A stretch of 64,000 bases of DNA, from assembly GCF_988243305.1 (NCBI RefSeq), contig NZ_OZ547136.1. The stretch is one strand, 5' to 3'. The notes under the pieces were generated by a model, which searched no databases, had not been told where the DNA came from, and was given only the letters and a program-made list of their open reading frames with translations. Positions 40,211-59,407 of this stretch are shown here, piece by piece (within the stretch, counting starts at the first letter, position 1; every line of letters begins with the position of its first letter). The position numbers and the translations under genes are program-made.

Positions 40211-41725
40211 GTGTATTTGATATCGTATGTGGCAACAAAAAATGGAGTTACAATCTTGAAAGTAAGCGAGTTATCTAGCCAAATTGGCCGACTTTACGGC
40301 TTAAACAACATCAACATAATTATGGGCCGAAACGGTGCGGGAAAAAGTCGTTTCCTTCGTGATATCGAACAAACAATCAGCCAGAACAAGCAGCAATTTT
40401 ATGTCCGGTATGTAAGTCCAGAGCGAGCAGGATCGTTCAAGCGTGATGGCACCGTCCTCACAAATATGAGCGACAACCCCGAATGGCTGAGGCACACTCG
40501 GGCAGTTAATCAGGCAAGCAACTTCAAAGCTGCATCGGCTATGCTATTTCGCGAGGCCGAGACGCTTTACTTACGTCGACTTGCCAATACTCCGGAAATT
40601 CGAACTGATCTAACGCGAAACTTTCAGACAGACCGATTAAGTAAAATTAATCAGCTTCTCACTAACATTTCGCTCGAGATGGGTAATGTCGATTATGAGT
40701 TTCGATCACTTGTAGATGGTCAGATTATTGATCCGGCCCAAATCAGTAGCGGTGAATCGGAAGCGGTTGCATTAGCCGCGGAAATCATCTATTTCTTCGA
40801 CACAATAGATCCGGAGAAATTCAACGTACTCCTCCTCGATGAGCCTGATGTACATCTGCACCCCGACCTCCAAGCTAGACTGGGCAAGCTGATAATCAGT
40901 ATGCTCGACGAATTTAGAACACACGCGAACAGTATTGCCATATGCTTATCCACCCATAGTTCCCCGCTCGTCTGTTCTCTTGCCGCCTCCCCATATGTAT
41001 CAATCGGCACGAAGAGCTTTGCAGTGAATGAAATCTCATTGATACCGGCCAGCGATGAACTTCGAAAGATTGCACCATTCTTCGGGCACCCCCTATCGCT
41101 TTCTCTTAGCGAAGACGCTGCATTAATTTTGGAAGGAGAGGACGACGAACGAGTCTGGCAACAAGCGGCCAGAACATCACAGGGTCGAATAAAAATCTTT
41201 CCCGTACTAGCAGGTAGCGTAGATCAACAGAGTCAACTTGAGGATTTTTGCGTAGACCTCCTTAGTACACTCTATGACAATCCAATCGCCTTTTCCCTTC
41301 GTGATGGCGATGGTGTAATCAACGAGTCGCTTGAACATCGCCTACCTCTTAAACGCTATCGCTTACGATGCTACGCTATCGAAAATGTTCTTTTGACTGA
41401 TTCATGCCTTGCAGTAATGAATGTTACATGGGTGGAATTTGTAGACGCAGCCAAAAAATGGGTTGAGGATAATCAAACACACTCCGACATAGCGTTGATT
41501 GCAGAACTAATGGAATCGAACGACCGATTGCGTCACAAGAAGATCAAGAAAATCCGCCAACTCGTCTGTGCTATTGTTGAGTGTAAAAAACCTTGGGAGG
41601 TAGTAGTTGGACAAGCAATCGGGGCATTGACCAGAGAAGACCTTGAAAACTCGAATATGTTGATCGATTTTCTTGGAGGAGAGATGGTCAGCGACGTCAT
41701 CTTCAGGGACGCAATAAACCCATGA
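40211..41725 (+). CDS. ABC-type (AAA_21-like) ATPase with C-terminal TOPRIM/DUF4435-like acidic region; candidate OLD/PARIS-like anti-phage nuclease (accessory)
   Basis: Walker A GRNGAGKS, signature-like ISSGESEA, Walker B/D-loop LLLDEPDVHLHPDLQ, H-loop LSTHS; C-terminal about 200 aa carry LEGEDDE and RDGDG acidic motifs; no TM segments; probable true start TTG at 40256 preceded by ggag. Confidence 0.55.
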   Translation: MYLISYVATKNGVTILKVSELSSQIGRLYGLNNINIIMGRNGAGKSRFLRDIEQTISQNKQQFYVRYVSPERAGSFKRDGTVLTNMSDNPEWLRHTRAVNQASNFKAASAMLFREAETLYLRRLANTPEIRTDLTRNFQTDRLSKINQLLTNISLEMGNVDYEFRSLVDGQIIDPAQISSGESEAVALAAEIIYFFDTIDPEKFNVLLLDEPDVHLHPDLQARLGKLIISMLDEFRTHANSIAICLSTHSSPLVCSLAASPYVSIGTKSFAVNEISLIPASDELRKIAPFFGHPLSLSLSEDAALILEGEDDERVWQQAARTSQGRIKIFPVLAGSVDQQSQLEDFCVDLLSTLYDNPIAFSLRDGDGVINESLEHRLPLKRYRLRCYAIENVLLTDSCLAVMNVTWVEFVDAAKKWVEDNQTHSDIALIAELMESNDRLRHKKIKKIRQLVCAIVECKKPWEVVVGQAIGALTREDLENSNMLIDFLGGEMVSDVIFRDAINP

Positions 41726-41740
41726 GAATGACCTGATACT

Positions 41741-42136
41741 ATGACCACGATTGATCCGCCCTCATGGTATCAGTATTTATTTTATAACCCGCCTCTCAAT
41801 ACACCAAGAGATTGCGGTAAAGTGGAGCAGCATGATTACCAGCTTTATCTGGCGATAAATGATATTGAGCATACGAAAACGAAAGCAATGTCATCTAAGA
41901 CCAATAGTATCTGCGAGCAGTTCCATAAAACGATACTGAACGAGTTTTATCAGGTGACGTTCCGCAAAAAGTTATATGATGATCTTGAAGCATTACAATC
42001 GGTTCTTGATGAATGGCGGGTTCACTATAATAATGAGCGAACCCATCAGGGAAAAATGTGCAGTGGCCGAACGCCGATGGAAACGTTACTTGATGGAAAG
42101 CACATCTGGGATGAGAAAAACTTAAGCCAGATGTAA
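41741..42136 (+). pseudogene. remnant of a DDE (rve integrase-core) transposase, C-terminal fragment
   Basis: 131-aa ORF containing ...TNSICEQFHKTILNEF...WRVHYNNERTHQGKMCSGRTPMETL, the characteristic C-terminal segment of rve-type transposases; no N-terminal HTH or full DDE triad. Confidence 0.6.
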
Positions 42137-42229
42137 TCTGACAGATACCTTTATAAATAGCCGGTAATTGTCAGATCAGGTCTGATCTTATACAACTTAA
42201 CTGTGTTATGAGCAATACTGAGGATAGAT

Positions 42230-43000
42230 ATGGAACCAGAGAAATTTGCTGAAACTGCAATAGGATTTACCAAAAGCCCTCTTGGTATCATTGCACTCTT
42301 TATTGTTCTCGTTTATGGATTTGCCTCTTTCGTCGTTGGCTTTGGTAATGGCTTATCAGAGCATATAGCTCCCCTTATTTATTTCATGGTTTTCTTTCCT
42401 GTCATTGTGTTTCTTGGCTTTCTCTGGCTTGTTGCGAAACATCATAATAAGCTTTACGGGCCGTCAGATTTCAAAGATGAAAATAATTTTTTAAGAGCGC
42501 AAATAGCTACAGCAGCATCATTGACCGCCGCCACAGCAAAACAGCCTGAAAATAGTGCAGGGGTCACTGAAAGCCAACTGCGAAAAATCGTCAACGTTGT
42601 ATCCAATGCAAAACGGCAGAGTAAGCATGAAAAATGGCGAAATCGTATTTTATGGGTGGATGATCGACCAGAAAATAATGTTTACGAAAGACAGGCATTT
42701 GAGGCACAGGGAATAGAGTTCGCTTTAGCTCTTTCAACTGACGAAGCCTTAGAATTGTTAAAAACAAATAAGTTTGCAGCTATTATTTCGGATATGGATC
42801 GCAAAGAAGGGGCGCAAGAAGGTTATGTCTTACTAGAAAGATTACGCGCAATGGGAGACAAAACTCCTTTTATGATCTATGCGTCCTCAGATCTACCAGA
42901 GCACAAGAAAATGGCGAGAGAAAGAGGTGCAATTGGCTCCACTAATCGAGCAGAAGAACTCTTTCAAATTGTCATGGGTGCGATTACCAATGGCTCATAA
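42230..43000 (+). CDS. membrane-anchored stand-alone receiver (REC/CheY-like) domain protein (accessory)
   Basis: ATG preceded by gagga; two predicted TM helices near the N-terminus; C-terminal about 120 aa align by eye to CheY (ILWVDDRPEN / ISDMDR / TPFMIYASS); AT-rich codon usage. Confidence 0.55.
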   Translation: MEPEKFAETAIGFTKSPLGIIALFIVLVYGFASFVVGFGNGLSEHIAPLIYFMVFFPVIVFLGFLWLVAKHHNKLYGPSDFKDENNFLRAQIATAASLTAATAKQPENSAGVTESQLRKIVNVVSNAKRQSKHEKWRNRILWVDDRPENNVYERQAFEAQGIEFALALSTDEALELLKTNKFAAIISDMDRKEGAQEGYVLLERLRAMGDKTPFMIYASSDLPEHKKMARERGAIGSTNRAEELFQIVMGAITNGS

Positions 43001-43294: not shown

Positions 43295-44872
43295 CTACTC
43301 CCACTCAATGGTAGCTGGCGGCTTGCCGCTGATGTCATACACCACGCGGGAAATACCGTTCACTTCATTGATAATGCGGTTGGAAACGCGACCGAGGAAG
43401 TCATACGGCAGGTGCGCCCAGTGTGCGGTCATAAAGTCGATGGTTTCGACAGCACGCAGAGAAACAACCCAGTCATACTTACGACCATCGCCCATTACGC
43501 CAACAGAACGTACTGGCAGGAAGACGGTGAACGCCTGGCTGACTTTGTCGTACAGGTCCGCTTTACGCAGTTCTTCAATGAAGATGGCGTCAGCACGGCG
43601 CAGCAGGTCACAGTACTCTTTCTTCACTTCACCCAGAACACGAACGCCAAGGCCTGGTCCCGGGAACGGGTGACGGTACAGCATGTCGTACGGCAGGCCC
43701 AGCTCCAGACCAATCTTACGCACTTCGTCTTTGAACAGCTCTTTCAGCGGTTCAACCAGGCCCATCTTCATCTCTTTCGGCAGGCCGCCCACGTTGTGGT
43801 GAGATTTGATGACGTGTGCTTTACCGGTTGCAGAAGCAGCAGATTCGATAACGTCAGGGTAGATAGTGCCCTGCGCCAGCCACTTCACGTCTTCCAGTTT
43901 CAGCGCTTCTTCATCGAATACTTCAACGAAAACGCGCCCGATGATTTTACGTTTTGCTTCCGGATCATTTTCGCCAGCCAGCGCTGACAAGAAGCGATCT
44001 TCTGCCGGTACATGAACAATGTTCAGACCAAAGTGATCGCCAAACATATCCAGAACCTGCTCTGCTTCGTTGAGACGCAGCAGGCCGTTGTCGACGAATA
44101 CGCAAGTCAGGTTTTTACCGATAGCGCGGTGCAGCAGCATTGCAGTCACGGAGGAATCCACGCCACCAGAGAGGCCGAGGATCACTTTATCGTCGCCTAC
44201 CTGCTCGCGGATGCGAGCTACGGCGTCGTCGATAATTTTCGCTGGCGTCCACAGGGCTTCACACTGGCAGATATCACGCACAAAACGCTCCAGCATGCGC
44301 ATACCCTGGCGGGTGTGAGTCACTTCCGGATGGAACTGTACACCATAGAAGCGTTTTTCTTCGTTAGCCATAATGGCAAACGGGCAGCTTTCGGTGCTGG
44401 CTACGGTGACGAAGTCGGACGGGATAGCGGTAACTTTATCGCCGTGGCTCATCCAGACATCGAGCAGCGGTTTACCGTCTGCAGTCAGCGCATCTTCGAT
44501 ACCGCGAACCAGTGCGCTGTCGTTTACGACTTCAACCTGCGCGTAGCCAAATTCACGTTCGTTAGAGGCTTCAACGTGACCGCCCAACTGCATTGCCATG
44601 GTCTGCATGCCATAGCAAACGCCGAATACCGGTACGCCTGCTTCAAAGACATACTGCGGCGCACGCGGGCTGTTTTCTTCGGTGGTGCTTTCCGGGCCGC
44701 CGGAAAGAATAATGCCGCTTGGGTTGAAGTCACGAATTTGTGCTTCTGTCACATCCCACGCCCACAGTTCGCAGTAAACACCCAGTTCACGCACGCGGCG
44801 CGCAACCAGTTGAGTGTACTGAGAACCGAAGTCCAGAATGAGGATGCGATGCTTATGAATGTTTTCCGTCAT
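43295..44872 (-). CDS. guaA: GMP synthase (glutamine-hydrolysing)
   Basis: 525-aa ORF with an N-terminal class-I glutamine amidotransferase and a C-terminal ATP-pyrophosphatase (SGGVDSS). Confidence 0.95.
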
Positions 44873-48004: not shown

Positions 48005-51000
48005 TTACTGGAAGCAGGTCACCAGACCCGGTTTATTCATTAGCGTGATACTACAATCCTGTGCTCCAGTGCCTTCGTCCATTCCACACTGTTGAGAGGA
48101 CAAATAAGGAAAACTTGGTGAAGACGGCCATCCCAGTGAATTAAAAACAGTGTGCAACAACTCTAATTCATTGTATGTCGGTGCATTTTCTATGCTGCCA
48201 CACTGCCTTGCAATATCCCATTTACTGGCATCAATGATATGTGCAGAAGCCCAGTTTTCGTAGTTAATAATCGGTGAGGATACGGGATTAGCCCCGGACG
48301 GCAATTCTGTCGTTAACAACGGTCGATGTAGCGATTTACCATTCACCACTACAGTGTCTGCCATATGTCCCCAAAAGTGCGCCGAGGAAACATTCGGGCT
48401 GGTTGGTACCGTAAAAATAGCGTCCAGCGTGTCTGTCGCGGAAGCGTAATTAGCCAGAGTAACCGTCAGTGGCGTTTTATAACCAGGGGTATTATCCTGG
48501 CGGAGCGTAAAACTTGCCGTCCCATCCGCGCCTGTCATGCCACTAATGGTATTACCGCTTTCACTCAGCGTAACAGCCGAACCAGATAACGGCTGAACGA
48601 TGAGATCGTCCATCGCCACCACATCACCATACAACGTCGCCCCAGCGTTACGCGGCGATGCATCGCCACGTTTCAAAGTAAATTCCACATTCGGTACCGT
48701 ATTCCCGGCGCTGTCTTTCACCGTCACGGTAACGGGCATGGCTTCGCCTTTTTTCACTTTCGCCGCCTGAATAGCTGCGTCAAACGCTGTTGAGGTCAGT
48801 GTGACGCTGGAAACCGTTGCGCGCGCAGACACCAGACACGCCTGATAAGCGGCATTACCATTCAATGTCGTTGTGCCATCTTTCATATTGAGCGACTGAT
48901 TTTTACCATCTGTAGTCTTATCCTGCGCCCACCAGTAATAATAAACTGACCAGCCAGTTTCCGTCGTAAGGGTGTTATTGGGATAACGTTGATACAGTGA
49001 CTTCATATCGCTGAGCAACGGTTGCCGGGCTTCCTCACAAGGGCTGAGGCTGGCATTTGCTTTAGTGGTTGACGAAAAATAGGGCCAGTCCTCATTATTG
49101 TTATTGGTTTTATTTACCCCGGAGGTCGATGGCAGCTCCTTCCACAATTTCGGTCGTTCAAAGACGGTTCCATTTGCCGCTGTCACCGTTTCTGGCATAT
49201 GACCCCAGTAGTCGGCATCCTGGGCGTCAGGGCTGGTGACCACGGTAAATATCAGGTCCAGGTTTGACGTGATCTGCGGATCTTGTGCAAGCGAGACCGT
49301 AAACGGCGTTGCCAGGCCGGTGGTGGCGTTTTGCGTAACATTGAACGTCACTGTGCCATCACTGCCGGTAAAACCAAGCCATTTTGCCGTATCCTGAGCA
49401 AAGGAAATACGGGTTGCTGTCGGTGTGACGACATCTACAATAAGATCATCTGCCAACGATGAGGGCCTAATTCCTGAACGACTTTTCGCCTGCGCCCGCT
49501 GAAGCGTCACGCCCTCACCACTCACCAGGTTGCCATTTTGGTCTTTTACTGTCACGACTAACGGGATTGTCTCGCCCTTTTTCGCCGATGCCGAAGGTGT
49601 GCCGCCGTTACTGGCGGTTTTCGTCTCATCAAATGCTACTGAAGTCAGGGTAACGCTTGACGGCTTAGAGTGAGGCTGTGCCAGGCAGAGCATTAGAGCA
49701 ACCGGAGAGAGTGCGGATGATGCTCGTCCCGTGCTTAGGTTAAAGACCTGATAATACCAGGAGCTACCATTGGAGTTAAGTAATTCATAAATCCACCAGT
49801 TTCCTGACGCTATCGGCAACCCCAGATCTTTCGTTAACGCTCCGTTTGGGTGATCGTCATATAACCCCTGCAATTCGCTGAGGCGCGGTTGATATTCCAG
49901 CGAACAATCTGCCGTCGCTTTTTGAGTACTATATATATATGACCATGTCTCATTATTACCGTTTACCGAGCTCCCCGTAGTCGCTTCCGCTGCCAGTAAT
50001 GGGCGCTTGAAGGTCACGCCTGCCGAACTGGTAAACGTTTCCGGCATATGGCCCCAGTATTTCGCTTTTGGCGAATCCGGGCTGGTTATCACCGTGAAAA
50101 TGACATCCAGCGTGACGCTTTTCGAGGTATCGCGCATGAGTTCTGCGCTGAGCGGCGTTGACAGCCCATAACTGCTATTCTGGCTGACCTCAAACGTAGC
50201 TTTACCATCGCTCCCTGTCTTCAGAAGAGCCTGCGTCCCATCCCCATACAAGATTGACGTTACCCCAGTAGGTTCCACAGGTATGATGGTAAGATCATCT
50301 GCAGAGGCATCGTACGCAGCTTTAGCGCGGTTCAGCGCAGTCCCTCGTTTAAGGTTAAAGCTGGCACCTGGCAGTGGATTGCCTGCGCTATCTCGCACCG
50401 TAACCGTCATCGGGATAACCTCTCCCTTCTTCGCTGTTGCGCTGGGCCTGCCATCATTGCTGGCCGTTTTCGTTGCATCCTCCGCCGTTGAGGTCATTTC
50501 AATAGAAGCCGCCTCTGGATGAGGGTTTACCAGGCACAGCATTAATGCCGAGGTGGTTGAAGACGCTCTTCCACTTGATCCATTTAACAGATAAATATAT
50601 TGATCGTACCAGTTACCCGCATATGCCACCATGTCGTAAGCCCACCAGTAGCTATTTACCGGAATACCCAGATCGGTCTTTATCGCACGACTTGGGTGTT
50701 CGTCGTACAATGCCTGTAGTTCGCTTAACAGTGGTTGATAATGTACATCGCACCCGCTTTTATCGATATCCCCCTTTGTTGCCGATCTCAACACGGCCCA
50801 CTCTTCATTGTCTTCTATAAACGACTGGCCCGACGATCTTTCAGCAGAGAGTAAGGGGCGTTTGAAGGCAGTACCAGAACGCGTAGTGAACGTTTCCGCC
50901 ATATGCCCCCAGTAACTTGCCAGGGGGGTATCCGGGCTGGTTATCACGGTAAACATCACGGGTAATTTGTTGGATTCCAGGCTCGACTGATAGGCCTGAG

Positions 51001-54000
51001 CGTACACATTGGTTACCAGGCCTATAGAATCATCCTGCTTTACCGTAAACGTGGCTGTCCCGTCTGCACCTGTCACCGCATAAAGGGAGATTGATGGAGT
51101 ATCCACTCTTGCCGACGTTCCCGCAGCGTTGATTACAGAGATAGTTCTGTTCGACAACTGTACATTCTGGCGATTTGTCGATCCTTCACGTTTGAGAATA
51201 AACGGAACATTTGGTACGACATTTCCCTGCGCATCTTTTGTCACCACGCGAATCACCGCGTCGTCACCTTTTTTCCGTTTTAGTGCGCTGAGGGTTTCGT
51301 CAACTTTGACAAATTGTGTCGCATCGTTCGCTTCAACAATAATGTGGCTGGTCACCGCCACTGGGGTAGCCCGACAACTTAGCAGTCCTATACTGCTTGA
51401 CATGACCTCCGTTCCATCACCCGTTTTTAACGAAACCGCTTTAAAATTAAATGTTTGAGTGTAATAGGCAACAACCGTACTGGAGATATAGGCGCGTGAT
51501 ACAGGCCATCCCGTAACGTCATGTATTGGCACGTAACCTTCATCGGCATACAGTGACTCCAGCTCACTTTCAATCGGGACATATCCTGCACCGCAACCAT
51601 TTACAGATGTGTTGTTCGACTGGTCCGGCGAGAACAGTGACCAGCTCTCTCCATCTTCCTGAAAAGAGCTTCGACTGGTTGTAACGGAAAGCTCATCTTG
51701 CAATAACGGTCTTTTATAAATAAGCCCGCCTGCACCGGTCATCGTTTCGGCCATATGCCCCCAGAATTTTGCTTTAGGGGTATCGGGGCTGGTTATCACC
51801 GTAAAGACTACCGGAAGCATTGATTTTACGTTATTATCTGTATCCAGCATGGCGGTCAGTTCGGTTTTTAAACCCGTGGTATTGTCCTGTTTCAGTGCAA
51901 GTGTTGTCGTACCATCTGCGCCGGTAACGCCATAAATCAGTGCTGTTGTTGAGGAAAAATTACTCTGCGTGTTACCCCAGGCATCCGTCACGATGAGCGC
52001 GCCTGCTGTCACCGTTGTAGACGCATTTGCCCGATTGACGCTAAGGTTACGTTTAAGCGTAAACGCGGTATTTCCCACCGGGTTACCCTGCGAATCTTTA
52101 GTGGTCACGCGAACCACGACTTCTTCCCCTTTTTTCGCTTTGACAACATTATTCGTACTGTCAAATTTTGTGGGGTCCGCAGCCTCAAGAACGATTTGGC
52201 TAGCCTTGACGATCGGCGTCGTCTGGCAGGTAAGCAGTTCTTTTGTGGCCGATGGAATTATCGAACTGGTGCCTGAACTGAGATTGACGGCCTTGAAGTC
52301 ACGCTGTTCCAGACTACTGCTGGCTGTCGTGCTGGTAAGGTAACTTGAGGCGACGGGCCAGCCCTGAACCGTTTTCATCGCATTGCCACGGTTGGCTTCA
52401 TACAATGACTCCAGCCCGGCCTGAGAGGGAACATATTCACTACCACAACCATTAGAGGATGTGCTTGTCGCCTGAGTTTGGGTAAATTGCGCCCAGTCCT
52501 CATTATCTTCTGCAATCGCTGTTCGACCCGACGTACTGGATAACTCTTTCAACAATAATGGGCGTTTAAAGACCGTTCCATCCGCAGCCGTCACCGTTTC
52601 CGGCATATGCCCCCACATTTTCGCTTTATTGCTGTCCGGGCTGGTGACAACGGTAAAAATGGTATCGAGGGTCGCTTTTTTCGTTGTGTCTGAATAGAGC
52701 GCAGCGGTCAGCGACGTTTTTGTGCCATGGGTATCCGGGCGGGTAATAGTGAGAATTTTAGTGCCATCGCTGCCGGTCATCGCGCTGTATGCTGCGGCGG
52801 TATCATTGAGCGAAGTTTCATCCGCCAGGCCACTATTGATCACAACCGGCGCAACCAGCGCATCACCGCTACCGGCAATGTGTTTTTCGTTTGATCGTGT
52901 ATAACCATCGCCACGCTTCAGGGTAAAAGGCATATCACCCAATGGATTGCCCTGAGCATCTTTTACCGTCACCTTCACCTGTAGCGTTTCGCCTTTTTTC
53001 AGCTTCGCCGCATTTGCTGCCGCGTTCCACTGCGCCGGGTCCACCACTTCCAGCGTAATGCTGCTGGCAGGATTGTTAGCCGTCGTCAGGCAACTGACAT
53101 AAACCGCCGTGCTACCGCCAACGGTCCGCGCGCCATCGTTGAGGGCTATGGTGTAGTAATGCGGCACCTGATCCGCGGGCGAACTGCTCCAGTAGGGCTG
53201 ACGCTGCGTTGGCCAACCGTGTACCGTTTGAACGGCGTTACCGCTGTTAGCATCATAGAGCGCGTTAAGCTGGGAACGGCGTGGGAGCATATTGGCACCA
53301 CAGCCACCTTTACTGGTGCTGGAAGTGTTGGCCTGGCTAACGCGCGACCACACTTCGTTATTTTCCGTTAATGTGCCGTCCGGGCTGGACACTTCCGCAG
53401 CCAGCCGGGGTCGGGCAAAGGTTAATGCATCGACGGTAATCGTCTCATCCATATGCCCCCACATCTGCGCGCCAACCGCATCCGGACTGGTGAGCGTAGT
53501 GAAAATCACATTGTAATTAACAGTATTGGGAATATAGGAGTTTACAGGCGCAATATTCAGCGGCGTCGCTAAGCCCACACCTTGCGGTTGCTTAATTTCA
53601 ACAGTAGCAAAACCCTGCGCATCCGTAGTACCTGCATAGACTAAAGACGGTTGCGATGTTCCGTAGAGCGTGCCATTCATCTCGATTGCGCCGCGGGTTG
53701 GATCATCGAAACCCGTGGTCTGCCCCTGACGATTTTTCCCCATATCTTTCGTGATGGTGAACGCGGTATACGGCACGGGCGCATTATTCAAGGCATTAAA
53801 GGTGCGTACCGTCATGGTAATCGTTTCACCCACTTTAGCCTGCGCTCTGCTGCTTGTGGAAACATCATGATCGGTGTTCGCAGCAATCTGGGCGACCATC
53901 TCATTGCCCGAACAAGAAAGGTAGTTTTGCTTAAAGCCGGAATAGGTGTCGATGTTGCCCGTGGCCAGGTTCACCGACGCGTGCGACGTCTCTTCCACCG

Positions 54001-56047
54001 CACTAAGATACGCTTTTTGCAACGTTGGCCAGCCATATTCGGTGCCGATGACATTGGCTGGATGTGCGGCAAACAAACTGTGCAATGAGCTTTGGCTCGG
54101 AATATGACCTAAACCACACTCAGCCTGCATACTGCTATTCTGATCAAACAGCGCCCAGTCTTCGTTATTTTCCCGCACTGCTCCCAGTTCGTTGTCGGTT
54201 TCATCCGCCAGCCGTGGGCGTTTAAAGATATTATTCGCTTCAATAATGCCTAACATATGTCCCCACATCCGCGCTTTGTCGGAATCAGGGCTGGTGATCA
54301 CCGTAAAAATAACGTCTTTCTCATCCGAGGCGGTAAAATCACTGCGCATTTTCGCGGTGATGTGTGTTTTCACCCCCACGCCGCCTGGCTGGGTCAGCGT
54401 CAGAGAGGCCTCTCCGTTAGCATCAGTGATCCCTTCATAGGTATGGGCGTCAACTTTGCGAACGTTACTGCCACCATCAATTTGTACCGGGTGCGTCTCC
54501 CACGCAGCGTCAGTTTGATTCTTACGGTTAACACCGTCATCCAGATGCAGCGAAAAGTAGTAGTAAGCCAGCGGCTGATCGTTGTTCTTGCTATCGGTAA
54601 TCGTCAGGCGTAAAGAAGCCTCTTCCCCCACCTTTACTTTCATCGCTTTTATCGTCGAATCATAACTGCCCGGCGTCAGTACCAGCTTCGGTTCAACATC
54701 GGGCGCTTCTTTATCGACACAGCTCACAATAAACGTCGTATCGTCCGGTTTTTGCGCTTCGCTGCGGTTCGAAACATCCGCCGCATGGTGCTGGCCACTC
54801 ATCCCCGCCAGTGATGACCAGTAGAAATTACCCTGCATCGGCCAACCAGCCACATCCTGCACTGACGTTGGCACCACCGTCGCCAGCGCACCGAACTGAC
54901 GCATTCCGGGCAAAATGTCGCAATGTTTATCCGCGCCGCTCCAGGTAAAGGTGGACCAGGTTTCATTGTGATCGTTAACCGTACCGTTTTCATTATCGAC
55001 TTCCGCCGCCAGTTTTGGTCGACTAAAAGTGTAATCACGGGCCTTCAGCGTATCGGGCATATGACCCCACATTGTAGCCTGCGGGACATCCGGGCTGGTG
55101 AGGACGGTAAAGATCACTGCCGTTTCACTGGCCTGAGCAATACCCGCGAGGCTCGCGACCAACGGCGTTTTTACACCAAGGCCGTTGGCCTGGGTGACCG
55201 TAACCGTGGCAACACCATTCGCATCGGTAGTACCACGATATTCCGTCGCGGTGGTGGTTAATTCGGTCGTGCCCAGTTTTACCGGCGCAGTATTGTTCAC
55301 TACACCCTGGCGGTTTTCAGCATCTTTGCGTTTGATAACAAAAGGAATATTCCCCACAACATTACCGACGCAATCTTTGGTGGTGACCGTTAACGTGATA
55401 CTGCCGCCAACCGTCGTTTTCGCCGCACCGGAGGATTCGTCATAGCCCGCGGCGCTGACGGAAATAAGGTCACCCTGCGCGGGCGCAATCTTCAGCGTCA
55501 CTTTCTGATCGGCGAGCGTCAGAACACTTTCATAGGGATAGCCCGTCGAGGTGAGTAAATATAACAGCGGCATGGTCTGTTGGGGATCAGGCTGCGCCCA
55601 GGCGACCAGCGAACGCCCGGCAAGTCCCTGAGCGCAAAACGAGCGATCTGCGACTGGCTGTGGGTCCAGTAAGGTGTCCGGCGTCGCGGCATCCGCCCAA
55701 ACTAAAGATACTGTCGGTGGCGTTTGGTTTTCCCAACGTGGGGTGGAAATGATATCGCCTTCTCTGTCTTGCGGATTGGTGACGAGCAATTTAGAGACGC
55801 TAATATCCGCGCTGAATTCACTCGGTTTAGCGGTAAACGCTACCTCATGCGTCTTTGCAGGATCCAGAAAGACACTGCCCTGGTAGACGGGTATGCTGGC
55901 ACTGTCGGCGGTGGGCACGGTACCGTTAAATTCGCCGACCGTATCTGAAGAGTCTTGCCATGCAGATTCTGCCCATGACCGCCCAGGCAGCATTGCGCTT
56001 ATCAGCAATGCGCATAACACAAGGATTTTATTCAGGGTCAGGGACAT
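48005..56047 (-). CDS. giant repetitive surface protein, RatA/RatB-like (Ig-like plus lectin-like repeat modules); CS54-like island
   Basis: 2680-aa uninterrupted ORF with a signal peptide and nine repeats each containing (I/V)FTV(I/L)TSPD...(M/Y/F)WGHM...RP.L...NE.W...CG...L..LY...GWP....YW; no frameshifts seen. Confidence 0.8.
48100..55700 (-). repeat. intragenic tandem repeat array, about 9 units of roughly 0.80-0.86 kb
   Basis: Plus-strand string catatgNcccca (reverse complement of the WGHM codons) recurs at about 48362, 49196, 50045, 50900, 51752, 52604, 53450, 54254 and 55057, giving spacings of 803-855 bp, all multiples of 3. Confidence 0.8.
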
Positions 56048-56167
56048 GACAGAAACTCCACCGGTTGTTAAACGGACGCTTGTCGCATCAACATATTTTG
56101 CTTAATCCGGGATTAAGCAAAATATGCGGAAACAGCATTCCCTTGCGGGAATGCTGCTGAGTACGCG

Positions 56168-57145
56168 TTATTTGTGTTTGTAAATAATGTGAAGTTTGTA
56201 CCCCTGTACCCCGTCGCCGTTGGTCGGGATGGTAAGAGCTTCTTTACCATCGCGCGCAGGGCCGTTAAGGTTGGTTCTGGCGTCTTCGTTGGTCGCAGGG
56301 ATGACCAGATTGTTATTATCGAAGCTTGAGTTAACGATACCACCCGAGGTGCCGAGCTGTTGGCTACTCCCAGAAAGTACCCAACGGAAATCATAATTGG
56401 CGGTAACGTCAGCATCGGTACCCGCATCAAACTTGCCGTTTTTGTTCTCATCCGAGTACAGTTTGGCCACGTAGGTTTTGCCAAGTTCGATTGGCGTGCT
56501 GCCGTTGATAAGGTTGATACTGGTACCATCAACAAAGATGGCGACTTTCAGGTTCTGGTTAACCACCGGCCCTGGCGCAACGTTGTCGCTGTCGCTTCCG
56601 CCGCCGCTGGCAGTGGAAATGTCATAAAGATGCAGCGCAGTCCCGACGTTTGGCGTACCGGTCTGCGTGGTTGGCGTAATTTCAATACCGATATAACGAC
56701 CACGGTCGTCATCGGTAAGAGTGTAACTGGTCACCTTCGTTGCCAGCTCTTTTGGATCGTTACCCTGAGCGTCCTTGTAGCTCATCCAGCGGATAGTATC
56801 GATAGTTTTCGCGTTATCGCCCAATACCCCAAGATCCACGTCGCCTTCGGTATCACCAATTTCCCAACTTACGGTTAATTTATCACCCGAGTAAAGACGC
56901 TTGTCCGTTTCACTGCCTGTCGGGCGAGCGCCTTTTAGATCAGAAGTCAACGTTACATGGTCGGCATCTGTCGTAGCGCTTCCCCCTTCCGAATAGAGCC
57001 ACGGAATGGTTCCCTGGAAAATATTGGTTTCGCCGCTGTCGACCCAGGCGCTTTCTTCCGCCAGCGCCACAGGTGCCACACAATAACCTGCCAGTGCCAG
57101 CGCCAATGCGATCCGGGTCAGACCGCGTCTTTTATCCTGCTTCAT
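56168..57145 (-). CDS. SinI-like secreted protein (paralogous to the SinH passenger C-terminus)
   Basis: 325-aa ORF with a signal peptide; C-terminus LVIPATNEDARTNLNGPARDGKEALTIPTNGDGVQGYKLHIIYKHK parallels the SinH-like C-terminus; N-terminal motif EESAWVDSGETNIFQGTIP resembles the start of the giant protein. Confidence 0.65.
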   Translation of the reverse strand: MKQDKRRGLTRIALALALAGYCVAPVALAEESAWVDSGETNIFQGTIPWLYSEGGSATTDADHVTLTSDLKGARPTGSETDKRLYSGDKLTVSWEIGDTEGDVDLGVLGDNAKTIDTIRWMSYKDAQGNDPKELATKVTSYTLTDDDRGRYIGIEITPTTQTGTPNVGTALHLYDISTASGGGSDSDNVAPGPVVNQNLKVAIFVDGTSINLINGSTPIELGKTYVAKLYSDENKNGKFDAGTDADVTANYDFRWVLSGSSQQLGTSGGIVNSSFDNNNLVIPATNEDARTNLNGPARDGKEALTIPTNGDGVQGYKLHIIYKHK

Positions 57146-57199: not shown

Positions 57200-59407
57200 T
57201 TATTTTTTGGTATACAGCACGCGTAAACCGTATCCCTGCAAGCCATCTCCCGCTTGTGCGCCATAGGTTTGCGCTGCTTCGCGGTTAGTGGCCGGAATCA
57301 CAATGTCCTCATTGGAAGTGTTCGCCTGTGCACCCACTTCACCATTGATGCTCTTGCCGGTAAATTCCCACTTGTAGTCGTACTGCGCCATCTCTTCGTC
57401 AGTCAGTTTTTCGACCTGCTGGAAGACACCGTCTTTATTGCTGTCACGCCACAAAACAAATCGATAAGTGTTGTTGAGCGGCAGCGGTTCTTTATCTTTA
57501 CCTATCAGGTTGCTGGGTTTAGCTGCCCCCACACGATAGATAAATGCATTTAGCCCACCAATTTCTGCCCCGAGGAAAGTGACATCCACATAGTTACTGT
57601 CGTCGTAGGGCGCAGCTTTTGCTTTCCAGCGATAGGTGCCGGGTAAGGTACTGGAGAGGGTGACAGTGCCCTTTTCTTTATCTTGTTTAGCGATAAAAAC
57701 GCAGGGGTTGTCGGTCGAGCAAGGCTTGTTGGTTAACGTCACTCGTTTGTCCTGCGCGTCGTAAAGCTGCGGCGTGAGGTTATCTTCCGGCAGCGCATCG
57801 CCATTGCGGTCGGTGTTATCGCCAAAGCTGTCGGTTACATCGAGATCCATCACCACACCATCAACGCCATCTGCCTGAGCGCTGGCTTCGTGGCTGTGGT
57901 TGTTCTCTTCCGGCACGTTCGCGATGTTATTAACAATCAACTCTATTTTACGGTCCTGCTGAACGGTGATTTCCACCACGCCAGAGTTCTGTCGGTTGCC
58001 CTTTTCATCTTCCAGTGCCAGACGTACTCGCCAGGTATTGAGTTTTTCTTGTTCGGCTTTGTCAGAGCTGTACTGCCAGGCGGGCAGCACCAGGTTCCAG
58101 TGGTTATTGTTACCCTCTGTCAGGGTATTCTCTTTGATAACCGGCATAACCAACGTGCGGGCAGCATTGTTTTTCGCCTGCCATGACGCAGCGACAATTT
58201 TGTAGTGGTGGTTGATAAGCGCGTTAATGGTCCACTTACATTTTTCCAGCCCGACGGCCGCTTCGGGAGTGTCCTTAATGACGCACTCAGGGTGCTCGTT
58301 GGTGGCATCCGCTTTTAACCACAGGGTGACATCAAGCGGATCTTTTTCTTTGTATTCCAGAACAATAAAGTTATTACGCTCAACAAAATCATGACGACTG
58401 CCCATCAACGAGTGAGCCGCTTTCACTTTATCGCTATCCAATTGATCTTTTAGCGGAACGCCGAACTGATAATTAAGAGTGGCATTAATGCTGACATCGC
58501 TGTTATCTCCGGTCCCCGCTTTATAGTCCGCCCCAACGGTTAGTAATGGCACCGGTTGATAATTCAGTCCAAGTGTTACCGCGTAGGGATCTTTCTCCAA
58601 ATTATCCGTACCAAAAAGGGCGACTTCATCGCCGTAATATTGCTCGAAGACAACTTTGCCCCCCAGTTGCGGATAAGAAGGTAACCAGGCTTCGGCACGA
58701 ATATCCCAGCCGCGCGCAGGGCGTTCTTCATAAAAGCCGAAATCTTCAGAGTCTTTCCAGTCAGAAAGCGGATGATAATAGTTGCCAGAGAATTTTAAAT
58801 AATCAGTCCACGCTTCGCCGCCTAAACCTAAACGGCGATGTCCTCGGGTAAAATCATAATCATAAAATACATTTCCACCCAATAACCATTCATTAAAATT
58901 ATGTCTTACCCCAAGACCAATATTCCCGATTGTACGATCTTCTTTTCGTTGCGCAGAAAATTGACTGAAATAAACAGTGGTTTGATTATCGTACCAGGGA
59001 ACAAAATAATCGATGGAACTGCCATCCAGATCGCCGCCCTGGCCAATGGAGAGGTTCGAACGGACCTTACCGTAGGGAGAGAGAGTGTCTTCAATATAAG
59101 ATTGTGCGGTTGAGATGATTTGACTTTGCAGATAGCTTCTGGCCTGAGATTCCAGCGCCTCAGGGGTCAAGTTTTCAAACCCTTGCGTGGCGGAGTTGAT
59201 GACGTAATCGGCTCCGCGCTCTTTCAGCGATTTACCCTTGTTGGTTTGTTCATCCCGCTGTGCTGCCTGGCTACCTAAATCAGGTAACGATTCGTTTTGC
59301 TTAACATTTATCTCTGGTGCCGCGAAAGCAGCACCAGAGATAAATGTTAGAATAATACAGCGTTTCCATCGCAGCATGCACTTTCCCTGTGACAATGATA
59401 CAGTCAA
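57200..59407 (-). CDS. intimin/invasin-family inverse autotransporter, SinH-like
   Basis: 735-aa ORF; probable start at the internal Met (MLRWKRCIILTFISGAAFA signal peptide); N-terminal half has alternating beta-strand patterns typical of the intimin/invasin barrel (GLGVRHNF, LNYQPVPLLTVGADYK), followed by a passenger domain. Confidence 0.75.
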   Translation of the reverse strand: MTVSLSQGKCMLRWKRCIILTFISGAAFAAPEINVKQNESLPDLGSQAAQRDEQTNKGKSLKERGADYVINSATQGFENLTPEALESQARSYLQSQIISTAQSYIEDTLSPYGKVRSNLSIGQGGDLDGSSIDYFVPWYDNQTTVYFSQFSAQRKEDRTIGNIGLGVRHNFNEWLLGGNVFYDYDFTRGHRRLGLGGEAWTDYLKFSGNYYHPLSDWKDSEDFGFYEERPARGWDIRAEAWLPSYPQLGGKVVFEQYYGDEVALFGTDNLEKDPYAVTLGLNYQPVPLLTVGADYKAGTGDNSDVSINATLNYQFGVPLKDQLDSDKVKAAHSLMGSRHDFVERNNFIVLEYKEKDPLDVTLWLKADATNEHPECVIKDTPEAAVGLEKCKWTINALINHHYKIVAASWQAKNNAARTLVMPVIKENTLTEGNNNHWNLVLPAWQYSSDKAEQEKLNTWRVRLALEDEKGNRQNSGVVEITVQQDRKIELIVNNIANVPEENNHSHEASAQADGVDGVVMDLDVTDSFGDNTDRNGDALPEDNLTPQLYDAQDKRVTLTNKPCSTDNPCVFIAKQDKEKGTVTLSSTLPGTYRWKAKAAPYDDSNYVDVTFLGAEIGGLNAFIYRVGAAKPSNLIGKDKEPLPLNNTYRFVLWRDSNKDGVFQQVEKLTDEEMAQYDYKWEFTGKSINGEVGAQANTSNEDIVIPATNREAAQTYGAQAGDGLQGYGLRVLYTKK

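Follow-up and report, generated by a model that had tools for sequence, protein, structure and literature searches.

The closest described relatives of the gene reported here are ratA and ratB of Salmonella enterica, which lie in the CS54 island (shdA-ratB-ratA-sinI-sinH) and whose products carry two Pfam repeat families and are named 'DUF823/DUF824 repeat adhesin'. The Escherichia coli cluster sinH-sinI-ratA is treated in the literature as derived from CS54, and E. coli has a single rat gene, without shdA and ratB. Uropathogenic strains with gene deletions in this cluster ('ila') are reported to be attenuated in a mouse urinary-tract model (Shea et al. 2022, as cited in PMC12928451), and SinH is under study as a vaccine antigen according to a review. 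RatA is not mentioned in PMC9937491. Here we describe the ratA-like gene in a stretch of 64,000 nucleotides (nt) of an E. coli chromosome (contig NZ_OZ547136.1, assembly GCF_988243305.1; the whole stretch is called the window). The gene occupies 48005..56047 on the minus strand and encodes a giant repeat adhesin of 2,680 amino acids (aa) with immunoglobulin (Ig)-like and lectin-like domains; the two repeat families and the neighbours sinH and sinI are the same as in Salmonella.

Other known proteins resemble the window protein in part. InvE of Yersinia pseudotuberculosis (PDB 5N40, the source of the name InvE_AD) is an inverse autotransporter with a beta-barrel and has the pattern TSPD...WG(H/N)M...KRP.L..E...NNE.W in common with the RatA-like unit. 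The solved InvE fragment (352 aa) carries this module once, at the C-terminal end, whereas the RatA-like protein carries it nine times, has a signal peptide and gives no barrel match in aa 1-1200. The intimin D2-D3 and invasin D4-D5 superdomains also consist of an Ig-like and a C-type-lectin-like domain, but they share only 13-16% identity with the RatA-like protein, belong to different Pfam families and are present as a single terminal copy, not as nine in tandem. In intimin, the D2-D3 superdomain is the Tir-binding region at the receptor-binding tip (PMC7718877). The C-terminal domain of Legionella pneumophila Lcl (8Q4E) has a related fold with 15% identity but is not of the same family. ZirS and ZirU, the secreted partners of the inverse-autotransporter-like ZirT of Salmonella, are like the RatA-like protein in having a signal peptide, no barrel and Ig-superfamily domains, and in that their genes follow that of an inverse autotransporter. 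Heinz et al. (2016, PMC4943183) drew the parallel to ZirT and ZirS/ZirU and suggested that the inverse autotransporter encoded next to Rat-like proteins takes them as substrates.

The window protein matched the NCBIfam equivalog model NF011844 ('RatA-like protein') with 5384.6 bits against a cut-off of 3870, and residues 1-2680 were aligned to profile positions 1-2683 of 2683. The Salmonella models RatA (NF011843, 2127.7 bits, cut-off 3700) and RatB (NF011842, 2247.1 bits, cut-off 4079) stayed below their cut-offs, so the protein is a member of neither. Their alignments (2,128-2,247 bits) are still strong in the N-terminal region and the first units, and the best-scoring stretch spans only about the first 1,450 residues of the ratA-like protein. 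The profile lengths, 1,860 aa for RatA and 2,435 aa for RatB against 2,683 aa for the RatA-like model, suggest that the Salmonella proteins have fewer units. The gene is 99.7% identical to E. coli RefSeq genes annotated 'adhesion domain-containing protein', is placed between xseA and the sinI/sinH pair, and is the last gene of the sinH-sinI-ratA island. A relative was found in 1,736 of 5,426 complete E. coli genomes, which means that an island linked to urinary-tract virulence is present in about a third of them. Gene, family and repeat architecture are already catalogued in Pfam and NCBIfam, and the understanding of the family is unchanged by our analysis. We consider it very probable that the RatA-like giant protein is a surface or secreted adhesin made of nine ancient BIg21 + InvE_AD modules, whose copy number is stable at nine and is altered by rare deletions at microhomologies.

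Repeat architecture of the ratA-like gene

The reverse-complemented WGHM codon string CATATGNCCCCA has exactly nine matches in the window, which start at 48362, 49196, 50045, 50900, 51752, 52604, 53450, 54254 and 55058. The chance expectation is 0.03, and nine matches were reached in 0 of 100 shuffles. The spacings are 834, 849, 855, 852, 852, 846, 804 and 804 base pairs (bp), and all eight can be divided by 3; the original prediction, made from the sequence alone, had listed the first seven values correctly and the last one as 803 bp. All nine matches are inside one open reading frame (ORF), that of the ratA-like gene, and in its protein the WGHM and the TSP[DN] motif occur nine times each, with 268-285 aa between neighbours. 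The protein was then cut into nine units, and a hidden Markov model (HMM) built from those units found nine full-length copies in it, each with an E value of 1e-89 to 1e-115. The predicted nine in-frame periodic units were thus recovered by codon string, spacing and HMM alike.

At the DNA level, the periodicity is confined to a conserved patch of about 74-115 nt per unit with 60-84% identity, and Tandem Repeats Finder, run on 40-64 kilobases (kb) of the window, reported nothing in the ratA-like gene because the units are too diverged and the period is longer than 500 nt. With the DNA repeat limited to a short patch and no array reported, the periodic signal is therefore a protein-level repeat and not a DNA tandem array. 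The reference copy of the patch (52587..52660, minus strand, 74 nt) encodes IFTVVTSPD...WGHMPETVT at the join of the Ig-like and adhesion domains. The other eight copies of this direct-repeat family (D1) start at 48345, 49179, 50028, 50883, 51735, 53433, 54237 and 55041 on the same strand, and the family of nine has 61-76% identity to the reference copy.

The protein begins with a predicted Sec signal peptide, read from the translation (aa 1-26, 55970..56047, next residues ES), followed by a non-repeat region (aa 27-180, 55508..55969) which starts with W-Q-x6-G-E-F-N-G-T-V-P and is conserved among alleles. A Pfam search of aa 1-213 gave no domain at an independent E<=10. Then the units follow, all on the minus strand. 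Units 1 to 4 were delimited by Pfam and the unit HMM: Unit 1 (BIg21 + InvE_AD) is aa 181-449 (54701..55507), Unit 2 aa 450-714 (53906..54700), Unit 3 aa 715-994 (53066..53905) and Unit 4 aa 995-1282 (52202..53065). Unit 5, the modelled one, is aa 1283-1569 (51341..52201; unit HMM, AlphaFold2 model and Foldseek). By the unit HMM, Unit 6 is aa 1570-1849 (50501..51340), Unit 7 aa 1850-2132 (49652..50500), Unit 8 aa 2133-2409 (48821..49651) and the C-terminal Unit 9 aa 2410-2680 (48008..48820).

The nine units (U1 to U9) share 26-42% aa identity and 39-51% identity in codon-aligned DNA, the longest exact DNA word common to any two of them is 18 nt, and synonymous divergence (dS) between adjacent units is at least 1.7 or saturated. 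In ten other alleles or variants, the best match of each unit was always the window unit at the same position (47-99% identity), and the second-best match was never above 49%. Concerted evolution, or gene conversion between units, was rejected since same-position units are always closer than paralogues. The same observation places the duplications before the divergence of the alleles, without homogenisation, and on these comparisons the nine units appear to be old, strongly diverged tandem duplications. The periodic codon string is best explained as the trace that ancient tandem duplications, nine in number, of a module with two domains and about 280 aa have left in the gene.

Domains and fold of one unit

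Pfam analysis of the first 1,200 aa gave four BIg21 (PF05688) and four InvE_AD ('Adhesion domain', PF05689) matches in alternation, with E values of 1e-18 to 7e-34. The Ig part of a unit is BIg21 with E of 1e-24 to 1e-26, and InvE_AD matched 33 of 33 unit copies from four alleles. The precomputed Pfam strings of homologues agree with this architecture, and the DUF823/DUF824 repeats after which NCBIfam names its models for Salmonella RatA and RatB are the equivalents of these two families. Each unit is thus an Ig-like segment followed by a lectin-like one, as had been predicted, but the families proposed for the two segments were not the right ones. Big_1 (PF02369) reached a best independent E of only 0.11, and BIg21 fits instead; PF02369 is listed in the precomputed Pfam of some homologues, which makes Big_1 a borderline relative in the same superfamily. 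For the second segment DUF1566 had been suggested, the former name of Lcl_C (PF07603). Of the 33 copies, Lcl_C matched one at E<=1e-3 and five at E<=0.1, leaving 28 of 33 units without a match even at the looser threshold, so the units do not belong to this family, but the lectin-like fold and a distant kinship held, with Lcl as the next-best structural match after InvE. No IAT_beta barrel was matched in aa 1-1200, and the protein is accordingly not classed as an inverse autotransporter (type Ve); the barrel is encoded in the separate upstream protein SinH.

By sequence, Unit 5 matched InvE (5N40) with E=3e-18, and a profile of the 33 adhesion domains matched it with E=2e-34. An AlphaFold2 model of Unit 5, built on 34 units from four alleles, had a mean predicted local distance difference test (pLDDT) score of 91.6, and as a whole unit it matched 5N40 with a Foldseek E of 2.8e-19 and a query-normalised TM-score of 0.77. 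The adhesion-domain model had a pLDDT of 85.4. Among the structural matches, InvE (5N40) scored 16.6, the Lcl C-terminal domain (8Q4E) 8.6, the C-terminal domain of Bdellovibrio Bd2740 8.5, invasin (1CWV) and intimin (1F02) 7.6, and many C-type lectins 5-6.5. Superposition of the model on solved domains thus gives the second domain of the unit a predicted C-type-lectin-like fold. Intimin and invasin bind proteins through this fold, and sugar binding is not to be assumed. Each adhesion domain has two cysteines, as expected for a disulfide-stabilised lectin-like domain; the second one is invariant across units, and at the column of the first most units have cysteine.

In the Unit 5 model, a long strand (126-139) leads from the Ig-like end to the start of the Pfam adhesion-domain match, and WGHM is the next short strand. 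The columns invariant in all 34 units are R57, G97, G110, T134, T137, S138, P139, A144, W147, G148, H149, M150, R164, L167, E170, E185, W187, P209, G231 and C276, and they cluster at the join of the Ig-like and adhesion domains. The D1 patch includes T134, T137, S138, P139, A144, W147, G148, H149 and M150, and several deletion junctions also fall in it. In the model, FTV(I/V)TSPD...WGHM...RP.L..E...NE.W therefore reads as the join between the two domains. We infer that this motif was kept by structural constraint when the rest of the unit diverged to saturation.

Allele blocks and export

Compared with the ST131 allele, the gene has a dS of 1.2 to >2 over its full extent. In the comparison with the allele of strain 317 (L005), dS is 0.03-0.2 in U1-U4 and U9 and 1.1-1.6 in U5-U8, and DNA identity to the window is 94-99% in U1-U4 and U9 and about 70% in U5-U8 (window 48821-52201). 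The ratio of nonsynonymous to synonymous divergence (dN/dS) is 0.1-0.2 throughout these comparisons. The pattern indicates allelic blocks, presumably imported or long maintained, under purifying selection and does not argue for positive selection, and the central block of about 3.4 kb appears to have been exchanged between very old allele classes. The diversity between strains would thus lie in old mosaic alleles, especially in units 5-8, and not in copy number.

Directly upstream of the ratA-like gene is sinI (56168..57145, minus strand), which encodes a SinI family autotransporter-associated protein of 325 aa (NCBIfam NF040711, 337 bits against a cut-off of 165; annotated so in strain A10) with a weak ZirU-family match. 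The first gene of the island is sinH (57200..59377, minus strand), which encodes an intimin-like inverse autotransporter (NF033423, 1483 bits against a cut-off of 999); it is 2,178 nt long in A10, and the mechanical ORF reaches 59407 from a TTG start. The RatA-like product, encoded behind these two genes, has a predicted Sec-type signal peptide and no beta-barrel. Most likely it forms a long fibre, secreted or on the cell surface, with nine lectin-like binding heads that differ from one another, and its export is perhaps aided by SinH. The protein could thus serve as a multivalent adhesin with heads of differing specificity. It may also be a SinH-dependent partner or substrate like ZirS/ZirU, but with 2,680 aa it is far larger than the co-encoded SinI.

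RatA-like and SinI have a common motif, W-x6-8-(G/T)-x-(F/I)-x-G-T-(V/I)-P, which in both proteins follows the signal peptide immediately, at 55910-55969 (aa 27-46 of RatA-like) and 56998-57057 (aa 30-49 of SinI) on the minus strand. The SinI copy of this stretch is ESAWVDSGETNIFQGTIP, and that of SinI in PapRG is GQWQSETETTGTIQGTVPW. The match is weak and short (BLASTP E=0.004; hhalign E=2.3e-4 with a probability of 44%), and the motif is conserved across divergent alleles of both proteins.

This shared N-terminal motif could be a recognition element for the SinH translocator. A more far-reaching reading takes SinH, SinI and RatA-like as a two-partner-type secretion set, with the motif as the SinH recognition element, nine heads with different ligands, and U5-U8 swapped between strains as a cassette. 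Such a cassette exchange would explain why dS is above 1 inside an otherwise near-identical allele. If true, the protein would be a modular, antigenically shifting multi-ligand adhesin, but as a whole we hold this reading to be rather unlikely.

Copy-number change and a neighbouring locus

Length classes were taken from a search of 5.8 billion protein clusters. Nine-unit proteins (2,680-2,697 aa) form several clusters with about 200 to about 4,000 member sequences, and proteins with eight (about 2,396-2,413 aa) or seven units (about 2,111-2,139 aa) are mostly single sequences. One cluster with one sequence has six units (1,864 aa), and one cluster with three sequences has eleven (3,264 aa). 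Protein length therefore does differ between strains by whole units, as had been expected from the repeat. Several of the short forms are near-identical to the window protein with whole units gone in frame. Their junctions were U5/U6 at FTVITSPD (P0004) or at WGHMAET (P0031), U6/U7 at ALMLCL (P0006 and P0007), U4/U6 directly after WGHMP (P0040), U6/U8 and U5/U7 at TSPD (P0043 and P0045), and U3/U6, out of register, at SPD (P0058). Two crossovers were located in actual DNA, the one at U5/U6 within a 14-nt identity (GTGATAACCAGCCC) and the one at U6/U7 within a 7-nt identity (TAATGCT). The others, with identities of about 8-17 nt, were deduced from the window DNA. P0110 is the exception to frame-preserving deletion and ends early in an unrelated tail.

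Not every variant form is an artefact of assembly. The complete chromosome of the urinary isolate KE55 carries the U6/U7 deletion and has eight units in an intact coding sequence (CDS) of 7,194 nt, the complete genome of PapRG-06-5 has a divergent 7-unit gene, and P0049 (2,399 aa) was found on 23 contigs, one of them of 5.1 Mb. The 11-unit protein P0051 (3,264 aa; its three member sequences come from Logan assemblies only) shares 62% identity with the window protein, and its units 8-10 were copied long ago from about units 5-7 and are 45-56% identical to the nearest paralogues, so it appears to reflect an old segmental duplication. The complete genome of MB53 (L002 5957-14008) has a nine-unit gene annotated as a pseudogene with an internal stop, and thus the ratA-like gene is sometimes inactivated without being shortened.

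The frequency of deletion was analysed with probes in complete genomes. A probe across the KE55 junction matched 378 genomes, which is also the number of complete genomes whose gene is at least 95% identical to the window gene; 377 of them gave two separate half-matches, one at each parental site, and one gave the fused junction. Synthetic queries of unit-specific 100-nt tags, two per unit, each matched 927 genomes, and in the 85%-identity allele class no more than one or two of the tags find a match. The denominator of 378 window-type genomes was inferred from the identity, junction-probe and tag counts taken together. At least seven of eight tags were kept in 373 of 378 genomes for U4-U7 and likewise in 373 of 378 for U6-U9, which means that a loss of unit size in U4-U9 affects at most about 1.3-2.4% of the 378 genomes. 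In one genome that lacked a single tag the span was unchanged, which points to mosaic divergence and not to deletion. In the U1-U4 query the 85%-identity alleles matched only some of the tags; the frequencies given refer to U4-U9.

Copy number would thus change rarely, by in-frame deletions at microhomologies of 7-17 nt, and over long time spans segmental duplication would also alter it. The number of units is stable at nine because no exact identity between units is longer than 18 nt. For RecA-dependent exchange to be efficient in E. coli, about 23-27 bp of identity are usually required, whereas short direct repeats can undergo replication slippage independently of RecA. We therefore favour slippage or illegitimate recombination as the deletion mechanism. 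The original prediction of in-frame gain or loss by recombination was right in that units are lost in frame, but ordinary homologous recombination does not fit units with 39-51% DNA identity and a longest common word of 18 nt.

Some points weigh against the reading of nine ancient modules with a stable copy number in an exported product of the island. Slippage and inefficient RecA-dependent exchange are told apart by junction lengths only, and some variant proteins derive from short-read assemblies. A review reports co-transcription of sinH and sinI with no mention of ratA, and the 120-nt spacer between sinI and ratA contains two stem-loops, so ratA may be expressed separately. The first, read from the sequence, has a GC-rich stem of 10 bp with TTT behind it (56133-56156, minus strand); the other is a 35-nt palindrome, CATATTTTGCTTAATCCCGGATTAAGCAAAATATG, with a single unpaired central base (56092-56126, minus strand), read from the sequence and found by self-BLAST. 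These stem-loops may attenuate read-through into ratA. A simple promoter and terminator scan of 47.8-60.2 kb gave no more sites than shuffled sequence.

The units had also been supposed to form a recombination-prone array, and one explanation is a contingency-type array, in which homologous recombination often adds or removes units, so that length varies freely and assemblies are unreliable. In its favour, E. coli proteins do vary in unit number, with lengths of about 1,864, 2,111-2,117, 2,396-2,413, 2,680-2,697 and 3,264 aa, and many junctions are in register inside the conserved patch. But neither long DNA identity between copies nor frequent copy-number differences among close strains was found: the units are 39-51% identical in DNA, their longest common word of 18 nt is below what efficient RecA-dependent exchange needs, the junction identities are 7-17 nt, no homogenisation between units is seen, and the probes were kept in 373 of 378 complete genomes. 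In addition, the larger nine-unit clusters have about 200 to about 4,000 members and most variant clusters have one, and full-length genes were recovered from collections of sequencing-run assemblies. In the streptococcal alpha C/Rib family, repeats are near-identical in DNA and are lost at high frequency. The RatA-like protein is similar in being a large, probable surface protein with in-frame repeats in strain-dependent number, but its units are 39-51% identical and change rarely, at microhomologies. This explanation is largely refuted, and we regard it as very improbable.

It is slightly less probable still that the shorter and longer versions are assembly artefacts and that the true copy number is always nine. 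Many variants are indeed single sequences from draft or Logan assemblies. However, the KE55 deletion with its intact CDS and the 7-unit gene of PapRG-06-5 come from complete genomes, P0049 is found on 23 contigs including the 5.1-Mb one, nearly all examined deletions keep the reading frame, with P0110 as the exception, and in the 11-unit protein the additional units reach only 45-56% identity to the closest paralogues. A de Bruijn graph collapses where about k-1 nt (at least 30) are identical, and the junction identities of 7-17 nt are below this length. No repeat in the ratA-like gene reaches the length of a sequencing read or a usual assembly k-mer. The full-length clusters P0001, P0011 and P0078 are found only in Logan (assemblies of public sequencing runs) and have together about 5,700 member sequences. 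The expectation that short-read assemblies of this gene are error-prone is therefore not supported, given also the longest repeat of 18 nt. The gene can be trusted in ordinary assemblies, where nine modules are the norm, and the rare forms with 6-8 modules are real and arise by short-homology deletion.

That the periodic motif is a DNA-level signal (a recombination, restriction or regulatory site) can be rejected: the His codon of WGHM is CAT in nine of nine window units, giving nine NdeI-type CATATG sites, but Trp and Met have single codons, all four bases (T, A, G and C) occur at the third position of the Gly codon, other alleles have CAC at the same His position (2 of 9 units in MB53 and 2 of 7 in PapRG), the whole gene favours CAT over CAC by 24 to 14, the motif lies in a run of amino-acid columns invariant across 34 units, and Yersinia InvE conserves it as WGNM.

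Away from the island, the window contains a low-GC insert (40211-43000, plus strand; 41-44% GC against about 51% for the window) between guaA (43295-44872, minus strand) and yfgI/yfgH. It encodes a 504-aa AAA/ABC-type ATPase which resembles defence ATPases (PADLOC PDC-M01A, 1e-17; AriA-, PtuA- and GajA-like), a fragment of an IS481-family transposase (41741-42136) and, in an ORF of 256 aa, a product that weakly matches receiver domains. The same site holds two DUF262 genes in A10 and nothing in KE55 and MB53, and it looks like a variable defence hotspot.

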